Shown in pieces: positions 9,360-38,721 of a stretch of DNA of 64,000 nt. This DNA comes from Patescibacteria group bacterium (GTDB lineage Bacteria > Patescibacteriota > Patescibacteriia > UBA9934), in contig JBBTSM010000003.1 in NCBI GenBank assembly GCA_038064675.1, positions 191,212 to 255,211 on the forward strand, written 5' to 3'. The position numbers and the translations under genes were made by a program. How positions within the stretch are numbered: position 1 is the first letter of the stretch; every line of letters starts with the position of its first letter. The notes below the pieces were generated by a model, which did no database searches, was not told where the DNA came from, and was given only the letters and a program-made list of their open reading frames with translations.

Positions 9360-10631
9360 ATGTCTCGATTGATTCTGCACATTGATTTCAATTCATTCTT
9401 TGCGTCCGTTGAGGCGCAGGCAAATCCTTTTCTTCGTGGAAAGGCGTTTGCGGTTGCCGGCAAAGGCAAAGGGAGAATCGATCGCGAGGCAGGGGCGATC
9501 CAAGGAAAACGAACGTCCATCAGCGAGCTCTCCCATTCACGGTCGGTCGTCACCACCGCGTCGCGCGAAGCCAAAAAACTTGGTGTCAAAACCGCGATGA
9601 CAACGCACGAGGCGCAGCGCATCATCCCAAATCTCCCCATCATTCCCGGCGATCCTCGAAAGTACGCTGAGGTTACACATCGATTCCTCAAAATTCTTCG
9701 AACACACTGCGACGCCGTTGAGCAGTTTAGTGTTGACGAAGCGTTTGCAGATATTACCACCGTTGCCGCAGACAAATTTGGCGCGATTCTTCTTGCGCAA
9801 ATTCTTCGGTCGAAGATCGTCGAAACCATTGGCGAAGCGTGCACAGCGTCCATTGGTATTGGCCCGAATAAAGTTATCGCAAAACTTGCGAGCGAGCTTG
9901 TAAAACCAAATGGATTTACTTACGTCGATCCTTCCGAGGTGGAGTCCTTTGTTGCCGCGCGCGATCTTCGCGACATCTGCGGTATCGGCCCCCGGCTTGG
10001 CAAACGCCTCACCAACCTTGGCATCACCACCATTCTGCATCTTCGTGCAGCGCCGATGGATCGCCTCATCGCCGAATTCGGTCCGCACACCGCGGAGTTT
10101 CTCTGGAACGTTTCGCGCGGGATTGGCGATGATGTGGTTGTCGATTCCGAAGACGATCCAAAGTCCGTCGGTCATTCCTACACATTCCCCCACGGACTTG
10201 AAACCGATCAGGAAGTTCACGACAACCTTCTTGCACTCGCCGACATGGTTGCGCAACGTTTACGAAATCAGAATCTCTTCGCAACCCACGTGAGTCTCTT
10301 TGCGCGATACGAAGACGGCGGCGGATCCGGAACAAGCGCCCAGCTTCCAGAAGCAACCAACGACGGCCTCACACTCTTCGAGCACGGATTCCGATCGCTT
10401 CTTCCTATCATCGATCTCGATCGCGGCATCCGCCTGCTCGGAATCAGCGCAACGCACTTCGCGGAAAAGATTCCCTCCCTCATTCCCGAACACAACGAAC
10501 GCTACGATCGCTGTATTTCCGCCCTCGACCTCATCGCTAAAAAGTTTGGCACCGGCGCCTGGCACAGAGCAAGCACCCTGAATACGGTTTTCCTAGAACG
10601 AGTTAGTGGGTGGCATTATGATCATGAGTAA
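9360..10631 (+). CDS. dinB: DNA polymerase IV (Y-family translesion polymerase)
   Basis: HIDFNSFFASVE… and SVDEAFADIT catalytic motifs; palm/fingers/little-finger layout; adjacent to lexA. Confidence 0.85.
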   Translation: MSRLILHIDFNSFFASVEAQANPFLRGKAFAVAGKGKGRIDREAGAIQGKRTSISELSHSRSVVTTASREAKKLGVKTAMTTHEAQRIIPNLPIIPGDPRKYAEVTHRFLKILRTHCDAVEQFSVDEAFADITTVAADKFGAILLAQILRSKIVETIGEACTASIGIGPNKVIAKLASELVKPNGFTYVDPSEVESFVAARDLRDICGIGPRLGKRLTNLGITTILHLRAAPMDRLIAEFGPHTAEFLWNVSRGIGDDVVVDSEDDPKSVGHSYTFPHGLETDQEVHDNLLALADMVAQRLRNQNLFATHVSLFARYEDGGGSGTSAQLPEATNDGLTLFEHGFRSLLPIIDLDRGIRLLGISATHFAEKIPSLIPEHNERYDRCISALDLIAKKFGTGAWHRASTLNTVFLERVSGWHYDHE

Positions 10632-30153: not shown

Positions 30154-32217
<2,064 letters not shown>

Positions 32218-32363
32218 CGCGAAAAGTACTCTCACTAAAAAAGCACCGAAATTCGGTGCTTTTTGATTTTAAATACACAGAAACCCTTGCAAAAGGGTAA
32301 TTTCTGTGTTATGATTTCTTGTCCGGATGCACCGGCGAATCACAAAGATAAGGAGAAACGCAC

Positions 32364-32918
32364 ATGTTGCGCACGACAGGAAACACCGAGCCTCTCGAAA
32401 CCCCCAACGACGAGAAGCCGTTCGTCACGGTCGCTCTCGTGGTGACCATCGGCCACAACGCCCCGCCGTGCGTCCTCCGGGCGCTCGGCAAGGCGAGCCG
32501 CACGATCCTCTCGGCCGCGACGGTGGTGCCCCCGGACCAGGAGTGGGACTGGACGCCGGAGACGATGGACGAGATCGTCCTCGTTGCCAACGCCATCGTG
32601 AATGACCTCCTCACCACCCACTTCATCCTGCCCGAGCTCTCGCTGCCCCAGGACGACGAGGAGGGCGGCCCGAACATCTGGAACACGGACGTGCGCCGCG
32701 AGTTCGCGGTCGAGGTGAACCCGGAAGACCACGACGAGTTCTTCGTCCGGACGGCGATCCGGCTCGAGACCGCGGGCGGAAACCGAACGAGGCACCCCGA
32801 GCGCGCGACGTACGCGGCGGTCGTGCCCCCGGATCCGGACAGCGATCTCCCCGCGTGCATCACGTTCCACGGCAAGATCACCCGCGCGACGCACATCCCG
32901 GCCATCCGGCTGGAGTAA
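32364..32918 (+). CDS. GC-rich acidic hypothetical protein (orphan cassette)
   Basis: 184 aa, GC3 very high vs neighbours; own promoter TTGCAA-17-TATGAT (32290-32320) and RBS AAGGAGA; terminator GGCGGCCCCACCAGGCCGCCGC at 32937-32958. Confidence 0.45.
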   Translation: MLRTTGNTEPLETPNDEKPFVTVALVVTIGHNAPPCVLRALGKASRTILSAATVVPPDQEWDWTPETMDEIVLVANAIVNDLLTTHFILPELSLPQDDEEGGPNIWNTDVRREFAVEVNPEDHDEFFVRTAIRLETAGGNRTRHPERATYAAVVPPDPDSDLPACITFHGKITRATHIPAIRLE

Positions 32919-33054
32919 TCGCGCACCAACGACGCCAGCGGCGGCCCCACCAGGCCGCCGCGTTCGTTTTCCACCGACCCCCTTGCTCCCCCATCCAATT
33001 CGGTGTATATTCTCCCCATCAGCCGAAAGGCTTTTTTTGATACAATATTTCCGT

Positions 33055-33258
33055 ATGCAACGCATTCTCAACAATCCAGCGGTAAAGTACTTCCGTGAAG
33101 CACGGATGGAACTGGAAAAGGTTTCTTGGCCAACACGAAAGGAAACCATCATGTACTCCACCATTGTTCTCGTCCTTAGTCTCGCTACCGCCGCATTCAT
33201 TGGCGTGCTCGACCTTGGCTTGAGCAAGGGCCTCGAGTTCCTTATTTCCAAAGTCTAA
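33055..33258 (+). CDS. secE: Preprotein translocase subunit SecE
   Basis: 67 aa; …FREARMELEKVSWPTRKETIMYSTIVLVLSLATAAFIGVLD… single TM; immediately upstream of nusG. Confidence 0.75.
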   Translation: MQRILNNPAVKYFREARMELEKVSWPTRKETIMYSTIVLVLSLATAAFIGVLDLGLSKGLEFLISKV

Positions 33259-33260
33259 GT

Positions 33261-33806
33261 ATGGCAAAACAAACCGCCAATTACGGCCGACGTTGGTACG
33301 TTATTCACACGTACTCTGGATACGAAGAAAGCGTGGTAGAAGCGCTCACTCAGCGTATGAGCACCATGGACATGGAGGAGAAGATTTTCAACATTCTCGT
33401 TCCAAAGGAAAAGAAGATTAAGATCAAGAACGGTGCACGTAAGGTTATCGAAGAAAAGATTTTCCCAGGCTATGTGCTCGTGGAAATGATCGTAACTGAC
33501 GACTCTTGGTACGTGGTGCGCAACACACCAAACGTTACGGGCTTCATCGGAACGGGAAATACTCCAACTCCGATCCCACAAGAACAGGTGGACGATCTCA
33601 TGAAGCGCGTGGGTGTCGCAGAACCAGAATTCAAGATCGACGTGGAAAAAGGCTCACTCGTTGCCATCACCGACGGTCCGTTCAAGGGCCAGCAAGGAAA
33701 GGTGGACGACGTGGACATGTCCCGCGGAAAGGTCAAAGTCATGGTCTCCATGTTCGGCCGCGAAACCCCGCTCGAACTCGACTTCCTCCAGGTCAAAAAA
33801 GTGTAA
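33261..33806 (+). CDS. nusG: Transcription termination/antitermination factor NusG
   Basis: RWYVIHTYSGYEESV… NGN domain and C-terminal KOW (…GSLVAITDGPFKGQQGKVDDVD…). Confidence 0.9.
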   Translation: MAKQTANYGRRWYVIHTYSGYEESVVEALTQRMSTMDMEEKIFNILVPKEKKIKIKNGARKVIEEKIFPGYVLVEMIVTDDSWYVVRNTPNVTGFIGTGNTPTPIPQEQVDDLMKRVGVAEPEFKIDVEKGSLVAITDGPFKGQQGKVDDVDMSRGKVKVMVSMFGRETPLELDFLQVKKV

Positions 33807-33811
33807 ACCAA

Positions 33812-33845
33812 AAATCACTCCGAGCAATCGGAGTGATTTTTGTTT
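33812..33845 (+). terminator. nusG terminator, prototype of a repeated hairpin family AAAAATCACTCCGAGCAATCGGAGTGATTTTT
   Basis: Perfect 12-bp stem + U tract; near-identical copies at 35279-35312 and 36776-36812. Confidence 0.6.
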
Positions 33846-33897
33846 CATTTAACTGTACACATATAAATGGAAATACTGATAAAACGACCAAAGATCG

Positions 33898-34335
33898 TTA
33901 ATTAAACAAGGCTGAGCGAAGCCGAACCGCACGCTCCAAGATTCGCTTGCCAACGTTGCCCCAGTCAACATATTTATCCCAGTCATTTAGGTCTATACGT
34001 TTGATTTTTGTAACACTACCGCTCGGATCACTCTCAAAGTCGGCAACAGGCTCAACGGTACAGAGCGAACGTAGCTGGAACACAAAGCTCCCGTCTGAAC
34101 GAATAACTTTTTGGTATCCAATCGGACGATGCCCGAGAACTCGCATGTTCGATTCTTCTTTTACCTCACGTATCAACGCGTCATCAACGGTTTCGCCGGG
34201 CTCAATCTTTCCACCCAATAAACTCCAACGCCCCTGCTTTTCGTGCCATCCAACAACAATTTTATCCCCGTAAAAAACAAACACCATAGTGCTGATTGAT
34301 TTGTTCGACCGGTAGATCCGCGAAAGAATCAGCAT
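33898..34335 (-). CDS. NUDIX hydrolase
   Basis: Nudix box GGKIEPGETVDDALIREVKEESN. Confidence 0.7.
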   Translation of the reverse strand: MLILSRIYRSNKSISTMVFVFYGDKIVVGWHEKQGRWSLLGGKIEPGETVDDALIREVKEESNMRVLGHRPIGYQKVIRSDGSFVFQLRSLCTVEPVADFESDPSGSVTKIKRIDLNDWDKYVDWGNVGKRILERAVRLRSALFN

Positions 34336-34496
34336 CCCGATAGATAACCTCGAAATCAGTATTTCCGTCAGTGAATCGTTCTCTGAGCTCCATATGAAAG
34401 GAATTATAGACCTCGTGATGGTGGAATGGCTACGATCTGCATTTTTGCGGTCAAGATGTCGTCAGCAACGGTTTCCACGATGTTTTTTGTTTTGAG

Positions 34497-35267
34497 ATGA
34501 TACAATCGGCAAATATGATAAAGAGCGAAAAACTGGAAGCACAAGAATCGATTCTCGATACGCTCAAAAAAGAAGGAATGCTCTCTTTTGACGTCAAGCT
34601 GACACCCGAAGAAAAAGTCTGCATTCATGATGTCCGCATTGAACACAATGTCTCTGATCTCAATCACTACGGGAATATCGATGAAGTTCTTGTAAAGAAT
34701 CTACGAACATACCTAAACCAGCTAGGAGCTAACGCGGAAGAAGTCACAAAAACTATAGCCGAGCTTATTACAAGACTCGCAGAGGTCATGCGAAAAACTT
34801 TCAATAAAAGTTCTGTCTGGCTTGCCGTCCGCACATCGTTGCCGAATACCGATTGGGACGTTCCACGTTGGCACAGAGATGGCGGATTTTTGAATGATGA
34901 CAACGGAAATCTTGTCACCGAAGAATTCAAACTCGTCTTTACGCTCAAGGGAGCACCGACGCGTTTTGCAGAAGTCATCGACATACAAAAATTCGAAGAA
35001 TATGAACGGGAAGAAATACTCAATAACGAACACGATGGGTTAGAAGGTTACGAGGAACGAGCCCTGGCCATACGACGAAAACTTGAAGAAACCGTTCGAG
35101 AAATTCCTGTCGGGAAAAAAGGATTCGCCACAATCTATCGCGTAGACGGAACACACGGAAAAATTCATTCCGAGCCCGAAATCACCGAGCCCCGAATTTT
35201 CATATCAATCATCACCGGGTCTCAATCCCAAATCGAAGAGCTTCAGCGTCGTTTTTCATCCTATTAA
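34497..35267 (+). CDS. hypothetical protein, possible cupin/Fe(II)-2OG oxygenase-like (HxD…H: RWHRDGG … GTHGKIHSEPE); AT-rich
   Basis: 256 aa; putative facial-triad spacing only; composition differs from core genes. Confidence 0.35.
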   Translation: MIQSANMIKSEKLEAQESILDTLKKEGMLSFDVKLTPEEKVCIHDVRIEHNVSDLNHYGNIDEVLVKNLRTYLNQLGANAEEVTKTIAELITRLAEVMRKTFNKSSVWLAVRTSLPNTDWDVPRWHRDGGFLNDDNGNLVTEEFKLVFTLKGAPTRFAEVIDIQKFEEYEREEILNNEHDGLEGYEERALAIRRKLEETVREIPVGKKGFATIYRVDGTHGKIHSEPEITEPRIFISIITGSQSQIEELQRRFSSY

Positions 35268-35278
35268 TAATGACATTA

Positions 35279-35312
35279 CAAAAATCACCCCGAACAATCG
35301 GGGTGATTTTTT
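35279..35312 (+). terminator. copy of nusG-type terminator hairpin (AAAAATCACCCCGAACAATCGGGGTGATTTTTT)
   Basis: Sequence family match to 33812-33845. Confidence 0.55.
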
Positions 35313-35416
35313 ATTGACTTTTTCTGATTTTTATGCCATATTTCCCTGTTGATTCTTTCACAAGGAGCCCCTGTCGATATCTCAAGTCGATAGAGGTCCC
35401 TTGTGTAGGAGTCTCC

Positions 35417-35671
35417 ATGTCATCAGTGCGCACCGCGGCTCTCCTCGTCGCAATCAGCGCCCTCACATTCGCCCTCTCCGGCGCTCTGACCCTGTGCGTC
35501 AAGAGCACCATCACGATCTGGTGGCCGATCGGATGGACCATCTTCTATGTGGTGCTGACCGTGGCAGCTCGGCGCCGGAAGGACCTTTGGCAGAACTTCT
35601 CGATGAAGGCGGGCTGTGCAGCCCTGATCTCCATGAGCCTGGGAATGCTTGCCGCCCTGCTGTGGCCCTAG
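35417..35671 (+). CDS. small GC-rich 2-TM membrane protein (module 1, partner of M41-like peptidase)
   Basis: 85 aa; RBS AGGAG 5 nt upstream; followed by GC hairpin CGGCGTCGGCTCTTCCCGGGGCCGACGCCG. Confidence 0.45.
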   Translation: MSSVRTAALLVAISALTFALSGALTLCVKSTITIWWPIGWTIFYVVLTVAARRRKDLWQNFSMKAGCAALISMSLGMLAALLWP

Positions 35672-35803
35672 ACTAGACGAAGCGGACGTTCAACTCCGCA
35701 ACGACGCTCGGCGTCGGCTCTTCCCGGGGCCGACGCCGTTCACGTTTTCATTGCTTTTTTGGTTCTTTTTGGCTAATGTCCTTCTGCTCCAAACGGAGGA
35801 AGC

Positions 35804-36295
35804 GTGATCGACGACATCAATGAAATCTCACGAACCATCGTGCATGAAGCTGGCCACGCCACTGTAGGCGTCTTGCTATTCCCCGACGAAATCGTCTGGG
35901 TCAGCGCCATCCCCAATCCATCGTCACTGGGACGGGCACTTACTACGGTTACACTAGAAATGGTCGTTCGTTACCCGACTGAACGGTTCATCGACTATCT
36001 CGCGTTCCTTTTTGCGGGACGAGCGGCCGAAGAAAATCGGTTCAGCAACTACAAGGACTGGATGTCCCGGCATGATGAACAGAGTGCTCACGAAGCGCTC
36101 CACCAATATCGGGCCATGCATCCAAAACTCCTCCACAATGACCAGGATCTCACCACTCAGGCACGCCAGCGTGCTCACGAGATTCTCGTCAGAGAACAAT
36201 CTCTCTTCCACACGCTCACGTCGGGCCTCGTCCGCTACGACCAGTTCGGTCAGGAATGGCTCCTCTACAACTATTACCTCTTCGCCACGACGTAG
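35804..36295 (+). CDS. standalone FtsH-type M41 zinc-metallopeptidase domain protein (no AAA ATPase, no TM)
   Basis: HEAGHA zinc motif (IVHEAGHATVGVLL), IP…LG…, and GRAAEE motif (LFAGRAAEENRF) aligned as in FtsH protease domain; GTG start with GGAGGA RBS. Confidence 0.6.
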   Translation: MIDDINEISRTIVHEAGHATVGVLLFPDEIVWVSAIPNPSSLGRALTTVTLEMVVRYPTERFIDYLAFLFAGRAAEENRFSNYKDWMSRHDEQSAHEALHQYRAMHPKLLHNDQDLTTQARQRAHEILVREQSLFHTLTSGLVRYDQFGQEWLLYNYYLFATT

Positions 36296-36332
36296 CGCCG
36301 ACCCTCCCCAGGGTCGGCTCTTCCGTTTTATT
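36283..36332 (+). repeat. 50-bp duplicated 3' flank ACGACGTAGCGCCGACCCTCCCCAGGGTCGGCTCTTCCGTTTTATTG (copy 1)
   Basis: Near-identical to 37379-37430; includes terminator hairpin GCCGACCCTCCCCAGGGTCGGC. Confidence 0.6.
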
Positions 36333-36378
36333 GTCTTTAACGATCTTTCCGGTTATTGTCATTTCTATATCGCCTCTT

Positions 36379-36774
36379 ATGACGCTCTCCTCAAAAATCG
36401 AAACAGGTATTGTGCTCGTCTCCGGAGCGCTGCTCCTCCTTCTCCTTGCCGGCATAGCCAATAATATCCTCCTTGCACGGGAAGGGCTTTTCGACGCCGG
36501 GTACCATCATCAAACAATAGCGCACAACGGTCCAAGAAATGGAGATATCGATTTATGGAGTGAAGAGAAACCATACCTCTGCTCATATTTCAAAATGCAC
36601 AGCGACGGCGCGATCGGCTTTCACTGCACAACCGGCGAGTACCTAAAGCAGGAAATCCTGAACCTTCCAAACATCCTCGTCTTTTTCCTCTTCGGCTTAC
36701 CACTCCTTGTGATCTTCACCGGCACTAGTCTTGTGCTCATTTCCGAAATCAAGGCGGAAAAGACCCTGGTGTAA
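36379..36774 (+). CDS. small 2-TM membrane protein (module 2)
   Basis: 131 aa; N- and C-terminal TM helices; promoter TTGTCT-17-TATTGT at 36330-36358. Confidence 0.45.
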   Translation: MTLSSKIETGIVLVSGALLLLLLAGIANNILLAREGLFDAGYHHQTIAHNGPRNGDIDLWSEEKPYLCSYFKMHSDGAIGFHCTTGEYLKQEILNLPNILVFFLFGLPLLVIFTGTSLVLISEIKAEKTLV

Positions 36775-36775
36775 A

Positions 36776-36812
36776 CAAAAAATCACTCCGAGCGCAACCG
36801 GAGTGATTTTTT
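36776..36812 (+). terminator. copy of nusG-type terminator hairpin (AAAAAATCACTCCGAGCGCAACCGGAGTGATTTTTTG)
   Basis: Sequence family match to 33812-33845. Confidence 0.55.
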
Positions 36813-36866
36813 GTTGCATTTTTTATAATCAATCGATAACCTTTCTTTGCTTTGGGAGTGAATACA

Positions 36867-37367
36867 ATGCCGAACGCAACTTGGCGTACGTTAACCCAAG
36901 GGATTCCCCGAAATCAGACAACCGCTCACGCAGCCGTTCATGAGGCCGGCCACGCCACTCTGGCAACGATTCTCTTTCCGGCGACGATTGAATACGCGAC
37001 GATCATCGAAGCAGGAGGAGTAATGGGCAGCGTCAAGTACTCCTGTACCAACGCATCCATCTGCTCGCGACAAGAAAGCATGAACGTCCTCGCCGTTGCG
37101 ATGGCGGGACGGGCGGCGGAAGAAATCGAGTTCGGGTACTCTATCGACCTCGGAAGCTTCTTTGATTACGGCGTTGTCCGAAACCATCTGTGTAGTCGCA
37201 ACGCAAATGGTCGCAGACTTCACGAATCAAAAGACTTCCTCATCGATGTAGCGCTCAAGCGCGCGCACGAAATTTTGGTCAAAGAACGAGAGCTCTTTCA
37301 CCAGATCATCGCCGGCTTGATTCGGGAAAATCGCCTCGATCGCGCAGCGCTTCTTGCGCTTCAGTGA
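36867..37367 (+). CDS. standalone FtsH-type M41 zinc-metallopeptidase domain protein, paralog 2
   Basis: AVHEAGHATLATIL … MAGRAAEEIEFG; GGGAG RBS 7 nt upstream of ATG. Confidence 0.6.
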   Translation: MPNATWRTLTQGIPRNQTTAHAAVHEAGHATLATILFPATIEYATIIEAGGVMGSVKYSCTNASICSRQESMNVLAVAMAGRAAEEIEFGYSIDLGSFFDYGVVRNHLCSRNANGRRLHESKDFLIDVALKRAHEILVKERELFHQIIAGLIRENRLDRAALLALQ

Positions 37368-37378
37368 GCAATACAAAA

Positions 37379-37430
37379 CGACGACGTAGCGCCGATCCTC
37401 CCCAGGGTCGGCTCTTCCGTTTTATTGACT
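37379..37430 (+). repeat. 50-bp duplicated 3' flank (copy 2)
   Basis: ACGACGACGTAGCGCCGATCCTCCCCAGGGTCGGCTCTTCCGTTTTATTG. Confidence 0.6.
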
Positions 37431-37554
37431 ATTTCCGCCAATCCTGGCACAATCTTGTCACTAAATAACGATGTAGTTGCTCGAAGATTTACCGAGAGGA
37501 AATCGAGGGAATCTACTATAAATTCATCGAATTCAATATTCGAGGTCGTACACT

Positions 37555-37980
37555 ATGGCAAAGAAGATCAAGGCAGTTATCAAAGTGCAATCAATCGGAG
37601 GTCGGGCAACACCAGCACCTCCACTCGGACCAGCGCTCGGTGCGCAGGGTGTGAACATTCAGCAGTTCGTGCAGGAATTTAACGCAGCAACACAGGACAG
37701 AATGGGAGAGACAGTTCCAGCAATCATCACCATTTATGAAGACCGCACATTCAGCTTCATCCTGAAGACTGCTCCAGCGAGCGATCTTGTGAAAAAAATC
37801 ACGGGAATCGAAAAGGGATCCGGAAAGCCACTCACTGAAAAGGTGGGAAAGATCACCCAGGCTCAGTTGCGCGAAGTTGCGATGAAGAAAATGCCAGACT
37901 TGAATACGACCAATGTAGAGGCTGCGATGAAAATCATCGCTGGCACCTGTCGTCAAATGGGAGTCGATGTCATTGCTTAA
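37555..37980 (+). CDS. rplK: 50S ribosomal protein L11
   Basis: [43 protein letters not shown]…. Confidence 0.95.
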
Positions 37981-38034
37981 ATTAATATCGTGGGAGATCG
38001 GATTCCGATCGTTACTACCACTAACCAAAACACT

Positions 38035-38721
38035 ATGATCGGCAAGCGAATGGCTACAGCAAAGCAGATGATTGATAAGAAGAAACAGTACGCCGTAAAG
38101 GACGCTGTTGCACTTTTGAAAGAAACCGCAAAGGCAAAGTTCGACGAAACGGTTGAGTTGCACTTCGCGCTTGGAGTAGATCCAAAGCAGGGCGACCAGC
38201 AGATCCGCGGAACCGTTACCTTGCCACATGGCACCGGCAAGACGAAGCGCGTTATTGCCTTCGTGGACGCAAACAACGAAGCGGCTGCAAAGGCAGCAGG
38301 CGCAGACATCATCGGAACCGAAGAAGTACTCGAAACGATTATCCGCACTGGAAAAATTGACTTCGACGTTGCCGTCGCTGTTCCAAGCATGATGCCAAAG
38401 CTTGCCAAGGCCGCAAAGATTCTTGGACCTCGCGGTTTGATGCCTAACCCAAAGACCGACACCGTTGGTCCAAACATTGGGAAGATCATCGAAGAGCAGA
38501 AGGGTGGAAAGGTCGCATTTAAGAACGATAATACCGCCAACGTGCACATGATTGTTGGAAAGGTGTCGTTCAGCGCAGAAAACTTGGTTAACAACCTCGC
38601 GGTCGCCATCGAAGCAATTCGCAAGGTGAAGCCAGCGTCGTCAAAGGGCATCTATATGAAGTCTGTCACCATGACTTCAACCATGGGCCCAGCGATCAAG
38701 CTCGACCAAGCATCGGTCTAA
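38035..38721 (+). CDS. rplA: 50S ribosomal protein L1
   Basis: …KFDETVELHFALGVDPKQGDQQIRGTVTLPHGTGK…; start uncertain (38035 or 38050). Confidence 0.9.
   Translation: MIGKRMATAKQMIDKKKQYAVKDAVALLKETAKAKFDETVELHFALGVDPKQGDQQIRGTVTLPHGTGKTKRVIAFVDANNEAAAKAAGADIIGTEEVLETIIRTGKIDFDVAVAVPSMMPKLAKAAKILGPRGLMPNPKTDTVGPNIGKIIEEQKGGKVAFKNDNTANVHMIVGKVSFSAENLVNNLAVAIEAIRKVKPASSKGIYMKSVTMTSTMGPAIKLDQASV

Follow-up and report, generated by a model that had tools for sequence, protein, structure and literature searches.

In a 64,000-nucleotide stretch of contig JBBTSM010000003.1 from a Patescibacteria group bacterium (hereafter the window), two genes located between nusG and rplK encode proteins of about 165 residues that correspond to the protease domain of FtsH alone. 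We denoted the two proteins as M41a (35804-36295) and M41b (36867-37367), and the family to which they belong as mini-M41. We consider it probable that M41a and M41b are soluble M41 zinc peptidases without an AAA+ module, from a rare and lineage-restricted family whose genes are carried as strain-variable accessory cargo, and that the two small membrane proteins encoded beside them, mem1 and mem2, are unrelated to them.

M41a and M41b are reduced to an FtsH-type protease domain

The Pfam family Peptidase_M41 (PF01434) matched M41a with 33.0 bits and M41b with 42.9 bits, both above the gathering cut-off of 29.9. The match spanned profile positions 8-87 of 191, with the C-terminal helices aligning weakly. 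No match to an AAA+ module was found in either protein with Pfam and NCBIfam, and a hydropathy scan detected no transmembrane (TM) segment. Scores against the FtsH equivalog TIGR01241 were 31.6 and 36.0 bits, far from its cut-off of 600. Since the domain threshold is passed and the motif, third zinc ligand and fold are those of M41, while AAA+ module, TM segment and equivalog score are lacking, the mini-M41 proteins belong to the Peptidase_M41 domain family and are not FtsH. The original prediction, made from the DNA alone, had described them as the FtsH protease domain without ATPase or membrane anchor, and this description holds. With no AAA+ module, a length of ~165 aa and 32-36 bits against a cut-off of 600, a mini-M41 protein alone is predicted to be incapable of ATP-dependent processive proteolysis.

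The predicted zinc site, which had likewise been proposed to be intact, is complete in the sequence of both proteins. The HEAGH motif occupies residues 14-18 of M41a (H14-E15-x-x-H18) and 25-29 of M41b (H25-E26-x-x-H29), and the Asp predicted as third zinc ligand is D91 in M41a and D100 in M41b. In M41b numbering, H25, E26, H29 and D100 are unchanged in all eight aligned family members. In a 40-sequence alignment that included FtsH fragments, the D100 column coincided with the Asp of the FtsH 'GAxND' motif (Asp in at least 90%). The distance from HExxH to this Asp is 71-73 residues in the mini proteins, which we take to be the same spacing as that of the ligands His423/His427/Asp500 in Thermotoga maritima FtsH. 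Compared with FtsH, ~35 residues (GMS..LGP...FLGR...SE) are deleted between the third-ligand helix and the C-terminal helices. The C-terminal helices themselves, as aligned with those of FtsH, are kept and, after the active site, are the best conserved part of the protein.

Structural comparison gave the same family. A sequence profile built from M41a and M41b matched only FtsH-family proteins in the Protein Data Bank (PDB), including YME1, AFG3L2 and an FtsHi (8xku). The AlphaFold model of M41b had a predicted local distance difference test (pLDDT) score of 87.9 and a predicted template modelling (pTM) score of 0.84, and in a Foldseek search against PDB, all 50 of the 50 matches listed were protease domains of FtsH, YME1, AFG3L2 or FtsHi (query template modelling score, TM-score, 0.59-0.78). 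The structure prediction proposed earlier for 36867-37367 thus returned an FtsH-family protease fold only.

To judge by their 36% identity (E 2e-22), M41a and M41b are paralogues. M41a starts with GTG, preceded by GGAGG 5 nt upstream, and M41b starts with ATG, preceded by GGGAG 8 nt upstream. The two open reading frames (ORFs) begin 13-24 residues ahead of HEAGH, and stop codons block any upstream extension.

The mini-M41 family is rare

An exhaustive HMMER profile search of 1.84 billion protein cluster representatives returned 946 matches at E <= 0.001, only five of which were below 1e-10: M41a, M41b, P0004, P0005 and P0006 (P numbers denote proteins of the search, L numbers denote loci). The core relatives are 162-165 aa long. 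A looser fringe of complete short proteins of 169-188 aa comprises P0057, P0072/P0152 and P0085. Pairwise identity within the family is 25-45%, except for P0072/P0152 at 78%. Members come from at least five separate lineages, in which the proteins are 162-188 aa long, start ~10-24 residues before HEAGH and keep the catalytic residues. At least four of the carrier lineages are Uhrbacteria-like, and most copies adjoin secE-nusG-rplK. The two-M41 architecture of the window was found on at least five independent contigs, one of 284 kb. The contexts of the other family members are as follows.

P0004: L085 and L012 (same species, DNA 99.9% identical), between nusG and rplK, 90 bp past the nusG terminator
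P0005: L086, a more distant relative (RplK 70%), between nusG and rplK
P0057: L088, divergent from secE-nusG
P0085: L178, downstream of cysS
P0006: L087, beside a convergent HTH_3 gene
P0152/P0072: L090, L091 and L179, overlapping the start of a soluble 131-aa ORF

Where the upstream sequence of these other members could be read, no membrane gene was present, and the family has no conserved partner gene. In the P0152/P0072 branch, the stop codon of the peptidase gene overlaps the start of a conserved soluble 131-aa ORF (MPALFISGL...; L090 1371-1766, L091 679-1074, L179 877-993), which has no Pfam match and may be a partner in that branch only.

Other searches added no members. A word-index homologue search with M41b alone retrieved M41b itself and one FtsH-like fragment; it was too insensitive and was superseded by the profile search. 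In Joint Genome Institute (JGI) metagenome contigs searched with the family alignment, the matches listed were only full-length FtsH (median 640 aa) or contig-edge fragments. Viral contigs and BFVD yielded one 214-aa phage M41 protein; their matches were otherwise mostly full-length FtsH from giant viruses. Longer 'M41-only' database proteins (200-330 aa) were not counted as standalone examples, as they are mostly fragments. P0153 (239 aa, L089 3907-5720) was rejected for a similar reason: it is a frameshifted ftsH with FtsH_ext and AAA pieces adjoining, on a contig with a coverage of 0.37x, and it warns against taking short M41 database entries as standalone proteins. A literature search for standalone or AAA-less M41 proteins found no description of any in the library searched. 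The mini-M41 family is therefore rare, with five core clusters in the 1.84 billion representatives, and the suggestion that the architecture is unusual and apparently undescribed is upheld.

The nusG-rplK junction is a variable site

The mini-M41 genes of the window lie in a gap of 3,748 bp between nusG and rplK (33807-37554), which contains six genes in the ORF listing and Pfam annotation.

gyrB: 30184-32217, left of secE
secE: ~33088-33258
nusG: 33261-33806, plus strand, Pfam NusG (103.7 bits) and KOW, left conserved flank of the variable site
NUDIX gene: 33898-34335, minus strand, convergent with nusG
p256 (256 aa): 34497-35267, plus strand
mem1 (84 aa): 35417-35671, plus strand
M41a (163 aa): 35804-36295, plus strand
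mem2 (131 aa): 36379-36774, plus strand
M41b (166 aa): 36867-37367, plus strand
rplK: 37555-37980, plus strand, Pfam Ribosomal_L11_N and Ribosomal_L11, right conserved flank
rplA: 37990-38721, right of rplK

Four metagenome contigs from the same population, whose genes were called independently, carry the same genes, and the ORF listing reproduced the ORF positions first reported. The inserted stretch is real as well, with a size of 3.75 kb instead of the ~3.6 kb originally given. M41a is identical to P0003, deposited as 'hypothetical protein AAB473_03405' in a metagenome-assembled genome (MAG) of a Patescibacteria group bacterium, and M41b is identical to P0001, deposited as 'hypothetical protein AAB473_03415'. 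Both proteins were found on Hainich (H41) groundwater contigs. The source genome belongs to the Candidatus Uhrbacteria group, and its closest NusG relatives are in Uhrbacteria MAGs. The ORF listing and Pfam showed no integrase, transposase or phage gene in the island, and no tRNA or Rfam family was found anywhere in the 64-kb window.

Comparison with related genomes showed how variable the junction is. Across 78 related loci with nusG as well as rplK, the two matches were 9 to 5,881 bp apart; this distance was <200 bp in 41 loci and at least 500 bp in 25. Cargo in these relatives included a T2SSE ATPase with N-methyl pilins, D-Ala-D-Ala ligase (Ddl), a class II aminoacyl-tRNA synthetase, an EamA transporter, hemerythrin, a methyltransferase and several unknowns. 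This range of distances and cargo makes the nusG-rplK junction a permissive variable site. The premise that secE-nusG-rplK-rplA are normally contiguous is thus too strong for this group, where 25 of 78 loci have a gap of at least 500 bp and housekeeping genes are among the cargo. E. coli transcribes secE-nusG and rplKAJL as separate units, so an insertion between nusG and rplK need not break an operon.

In the nearest relatives of the window (NusG 96-100%), the gap measures 313-1,279 bp and an M41 gene is absent, which supports the earlier view of the region as extra content at this junction. L005 and L006, whose NusG, RplK and GyrB are 100%, 98% and 96% identical to those of the window, have a gap of 1.27 kb, in which a p256 homologue (40-41% identity) and, behind it, a small membrane ORF are the only cargo, and L007 (NusG 96%) has a gap of 313 bp. 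Among 80 related genomes, only L012 carries an M41 gene. The M41 proteins of the window and L012 share 34-37% identity, compared with 91% for NusG and 88% for RplK, and this divergence suggests either that the proteins evolve very fast or that alleles are replaced at a tolerant site.

The gap of L038 (8732-14050), L040 (970-6247) and L047 (8722-13994) holds a pilus-like cluster of 5.6-5.9 kb with a T2SSE ATPase, a PilC-like protein and several N-methyl pilin-type N-termini, of which the ATPase and one pilin were identified by Pfam and the others by eye from their N-termini. The rplK-rplA junction is variable too, with ~10 bp to ~2.3 kb (L082) between matches; variation was seen in L010, L011, L014-L019, L022, L027-L029, L056, L057, L063, L065 and others, and in L086 the two genes are separated by a 140-aa ORF (1272-1694) that matches DUF5671 below threshold. 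On the other side of the site, a segment of the gyrB-secE spacer of the window (32250-33000) has a GC content of 60-69%, compared with ~51% for the genome. It contains a 184-aa ORF (32364-32918, plus strand) with a strong coding signature (GC at codon positions 1/2/3 of 0.62/0.49/0.88). This ORF has no Pfam match and is not present in any related locus, and on these grounds it looks like a recently acquired foreign gene.

Copies of two predicted boundary hairpins lie between the island genes

Six predicted hairpins of two families, A and B, lie within the gap, and within the 64-kb window both families are confined to it.

Hairpin A1: 33809-33842, nusG terminator, bidirectional-looking (A-run, 14-15 bp stem, T-run), -24.2 kcal/mol, z -7.6
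Hairpin A2: 35279-35311, behind p256, second copy of the nusG terminator, -21.2 kcal/mol, z -7.4
Hairpin B0: 35709-35738, between mem1 and M41a, degenerate copy of the rplK-upstream hairpin, -31.3 kcal/mol, z -4.0
Hairpin B1 with promoter-like TTGTCT: 36287-36336 (hairpin 36297-36318), behind M41a, copy of the rplK upstream element, -22.8 kcal/mol
Hairpin A3: 36774-36815, between mem2 and M41b, third copy of the nusG terminator, 17-bp stem then T-run, -27.1 kcal/mol, z -6.6
Native rplK upstream element: 37381-37453, plus strand, hairpin B2 (37391-37412) and promoter-like TTGACT-17-CACAAT

Predicted folding energies of the six hairpins range from -20 to -31 kcal/mol (z-scores -4 to -7.6), and the layout of the island reads nusG, A1, NUDIX (minus strand), p256, A2, mem1, B0, M41a, B1, mem2, A3, M41b, B2, rplK. 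Hairpin A has the sequence AAAAATCACYCCGA - loop - TCGGRGTGATTTTT. It is also the nusG terminator of L006, with a compensatory variant in L012, and the A hairpins look like intrinsic terminators. We discarded the possibility that they are attC-like sites of integrons: their 14-17-bp stems are perfect and flanked by A and T runs, and no R''/R' core sites were visible by eye. Over 43 nt, the end of mem2 with A3 has 91% identity to the end of nusG with A1, and the stop-codon context of mem2 (GGTGTAAAC) copies that of nusG. The three copies of the nusG-terminator hairpin and this copied stop context suggest that cargo was added by recombination or duplication at the nusG terminator.

Hairpin B, followed by a -35-like TTGACT, reads ACGACGTAGCGCCGAYCCTCCCCAGGGTCGGCTCTTCCGTTTTATTGNCT. 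The B copies at 36287-36336 and 37381-37430 are identical at 48 of 50 positions, while the M41a and M41b proteins share 36% identity. The possibility that hairpin B is specific to the M41 gene was ruled out, as the same block precedes rplK in L005 and L006, which have no M41. As L005, L006 and L012 all have the B block ahead of rplK, irrespective of an M41 gene, it is the native rplK upstream element. The element consists of ACGACGT, a hairpin with a CCCC loop, TTGACT and then a leader 'CTGGCACA..GCACTAAATAACG..GTGGTTGC'. It occurs in several Uhrbacteria, namely L005 (~9660-9817), L006 (~2775-2935) and L012 (~1390-1535), and in three copies in the window, and it matches no Rfam family. It could be the promoter and regulatory leader of the L11 operon. 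Within the island, the order A3-M41b-B2-rplK mirrors the arrangement of L012, and p256...mem1-B0 resembles that of L006.

The membrane ORFs do not look like dedicated peptidase partners

The original prediction had read the island as two tandem modules, each a membrane protein with two TM segments followed by a peptidase. Both mem1 and mem2 are hydrophobic. mem2 has two TM segments and a ~55-aa loop, with no obvious Shine-Dalgarno sequence, and mem1 has ~3 TM segments rather than two, with AGGAG 6 nt before its ATG and a GC content of 0.82 at third codon positions. The peptidase genes are duplicated, as proposed, but mem1 and mem2 share no similarity, and the duplication does not extend to them. 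Neither matched any Pfam family, FtsH_ext included, and a profile of the FtsH N-terminal region gave negative bit scores for both. In spite of its similar topology, mem2 as a detached FtsH N-terminus was therefore ruled out at the sequence level.

One explanation for the island is a split membrane-tethered protease, in which each membrane protein recruits the M41 protein encoded after it and the pair forms an FtsH-like protease or pseudo-protease without an ATPase. A hydrophobic ORF does lie 93-133 bp upstream of each M41 gene of the window on the same strand, and the topology of mem2 resembles the FtsH N-terminus. However, the two membrane proteins resemble neither each other nor the FtsH N-terminus, and a stable terminator-like hairpin (B0 or A3) lies inside each membrane-M41 pair. 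The membrane-M41 pair, which had been suggested as something to look for elsewhere, did not recur: no upstream membrane gene was found for the members in L012/L085, L086, L088, L090 and L178, and neither L012/L085 nor L086 leaves room for one between nusG and the M41 gene, the nusG stop codon and the M41 start being only 86 nt apart in L086. Moreover, mem1 corresponds by position to the small membrane ORF behind the p256 homologue in L006, where M41 is absent. The two-gene module is not borne out by these observations, and we regard a tethered protease as improbable. mem1 and mem2 do not look like dedicated partners conserved with the peptidase, and their sequences fit unrelated orphan cargo better.

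A model of accessory peptidases at a permissive site

Under our preferred explanation, M41a and M41b would be two old paralogues of the mini-M41 family, each an FtsH-type zinc-metallopeptidase domain of ~165 residues that has neither membrane anchor nor AAA+ unfoldase and from which a ~35-residue segment is missing. As H-E-x-x-H and the Asp are kept in every member, we infer that these proteins are active, ATP-independent peptidases; their solubility and monocistronic expression are likewise read from sequence. Without an unfoldase, cleavage would be limited to peptides or to exposed, unstructured segments. The genes would be strain-variable accessory genes in the permissive site between the secE-nusG and rplKA units. 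The island would have grown by duplication or recombination at two boundary elements, the nusG terminator and the rplK-upstream hairpin, so that each gene or gene pair ends in one boundary hairpin and most genes would form separate transcription units.

Several points weigh against this explanation. Most family contexts are contigs of 1-3 kb, from which more distant partners would escape. Both M41 genes of the window are preceded by a membrane ORF, and two out of two could exceed coincidence. The hairpins are consensus and energy predictions, and the signals assigned to them are predicted only. The alignment behind the M41b model contained FtsH fragments, so the fold match depends on sequence homology. 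The FtsH strand motif 'IIPRG' is replaced by IIEAG, IPNPS or VPQDE in the mini proteins. Finally, proteolysis by FtsH takes place in a hexameric chamber supplied by the AAA+ ring, and an isolated, further shortened M41 domain may therefore have little activity. In support of folding without the rest of the chain, the isolated protease domain of E. coli FtsH was described as well folded and mainly monomeric (bioRxiv 10.64898/2026.05.06.723347).

There is a modest chance that the proteins have a more far-reaching role. They would then be a new class of AAA-less FtsH-derived peptidases that are self-sufficient, or modulators of the FtsH ring. They would diversify fast and be exchanged among strains of episymbiotic Patescibacteria at a recombination hotspot bounded by the nusG terminator and the rplK leader hairpin, and they would serve conflict or host interaction instead of housekeeping proteolysis. 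In that case, they might be coupled to the adjacent orphan membrane proteins in this genome.

Alternative roles for the mini-M41 proteins

A mini-M41 protein could act as a modulator or decoy of FtsH, inserting into or capping the protease ring of the full-length enzyme through its C-terminal helices and thereby tuning or poisoning it, with its own catalysis secondary. The conservation of these helices favours such a role, and the low identity of the M41 proteins between the window and L012 (34-37%, against 88-91% for RplK and NusG) fits an interaction or a conflict. However, a decoy does not need the strict conservation of HExxH and Asp, the ~35-residue deletion may take away ring contacts, and no FtsH gene was found nearby in the window or on any family contig. 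We therefore consider a decoy unlikely.

A conflict or regulatory module is also doubtful. Here, the peptidase would act as a toxin or an effector, or cleave a repressor in the manner of the regulatory protease ImmA/IrrE, and its small neighbours would be immunity proteins or targets. The locus is hypervariable and differs between strains with identical NusG, the M41 paralogues are divergent, P0006 lies beside an HTH_3 gene, and the P0152/P0072 genes overlap the start of a conserved 131-aa ORF. However, the HTH_3 neighbour is convergent and a single case, the cargo of the site in relatives is mostly ordinary metabolism and housekeeping, and integrase, transposase and phage genes were not seen in the island. 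The M41 proteins had no match at E <= 1 to Peptidase_M78 (ImmA/IrrE-type, COG2856), and the island has no HTH gene. M41a, M41b, mem1 and mem2 had no match in PADLOC-DB 2.0 at E <= 0.01 (the membrane ORFs were at chance level, E 0.04-0.14), and the only PHROG match of M41 was to a 666-position family of unknown function, around positions 421-495 only.

The weakest alternative, that the genes are decaying ftsH fragments (pseudogenes or assembly artefacts), gains some colour from the many 'M41-only' database proteins that are contig-end or frameshift fragments of FtsH, P0153 among them, and from the metagenome scan, where the short matches among those listed were all edge-truncated, yet it is very hard to reconcile with two intact ORFs with Shine-Dalgarno sequences, an architecture repeated on at least five independent contigs, the similar starts, lengths and catalytic residues in at least five lineages, and the absence of flanking AAA or FtsH_ext remnants.

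The NUDIX gene and p256

The gene on the minus strand next to nusG (33898-34335) had been called a NUDIX gene, and its score of 43.6 bits against Pfam NUDIX (cut-off 21.1) agrees with this. The gene was not found in the nusG-rplK gap of relatives, and its product matches the candidate NUDIX model PDC-S07 of PADLOC-DB 2.0.

p256 (34497-35267) has no Pfam match. Its residues H126-x-D128...H224 and R233 are unchanged in nine homologues, and the top 50 PDB fold matches of its AlphaFold model (pLDDT 87.7) were all 2-oxoglutarate (2OG)/Fe(II) oxygenases (PHD2, P4H, DAO), at TM-scores of only ~0.35-0.55. A 2OG/Fe(II)-oxygenase-like fold is a reasonable assignment from this model, and the label 'cupin/oxygenase-like' initially given to the gene was fair. 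Homologues (38-41% identity) are found at the corresponding position in L005/L006/L008 and L095/L096. Proteins of the p256 family, which is uncharacterised, are 207-257 aa long, and in related genomes they are encoded directly after nusG (L005 8587-9219, L006 1693-2325, L008 8583-9218, L095 925-1548). Prolyl hydroxylases, including Pseudomonas P4H, are among the structural neighbours of p256, and a role of the family in modifying translation proteins is speculative.

Relation to FtsH and implications

FtsH is the textbook fusion of anchor, unfoldase and protease in one chain. The mini-M41 proteins share with FtsH (MEROPS M41, PF01434, TIGR01241; YME1/AFG3L2) the HEAGH helix, the 'GRAAEE' helix, a third-ligand Asp at the FtsH spacing and the C-terminal helices. 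They differ in the lack of a TM anchor, periplasmic domain and AAA+ module, in their length (~165 aa vs ~600-650), in the ~35-residue deletion within the protease domain and in the loss of 'IIPRG'.

Isolated FtsH protease-domain constructs (PDB 2DI4 of Aquifex aeolicus; E. coli pFtsH 399-644) show that M41 folds without AAA+, and 2DI4 matches the M41b model with a TM-score of ~0.63-0.66. Those constructs are laboratory truncations of ~240 aa, whereas mini-M41 is a natural, shorter and distinct fast-evolving family. Plastid FtsHi proteins, like mini-M41, depart from the one-chain scheme of the FtsH family. In these pseudo-proteases the AAA+ module is retained, whereas the HExxH zinc site has been lost; mini-M41 is the reverse, with the catalytic site kept and AAA+ lost. 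The short phage protein mentioned above, annotated as Peptidase M41 (UniProt A0A6J5RJ76, 214 aa, uncultured Caudovirales phage), has TM-scores of 0.75/0.59 to the M41b model. It falls outside the mini-M41 sequence family of the exhaustive search and is uncharacterised. AAA-less M41 proteins may thus occur sporadically elsewhere.

The mini-M41 family is real, rare and uncharacterised, and small in scope. It is a very small family of one candidate phylum, and unless a function comes to light, it will be of limited general importance. The locus itself documents how the normally tight inter-operon junction of nusG and rplK turns into a cargo site with duplicated hairpins at its seams, which is relevant wherever this junction is taken as a marker of synteny. 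By the common view, the M41 domain works only within a hexameric chamber supplied by its own AAA+ ring, and a natural family with a trimmed M41 domain and intact catalytic residues offers a way to ask what a lone M41 site can do. The mini-M41 proteins are also an example of how genome reduction in Patescibacteria can take AAA+ proteases apart.

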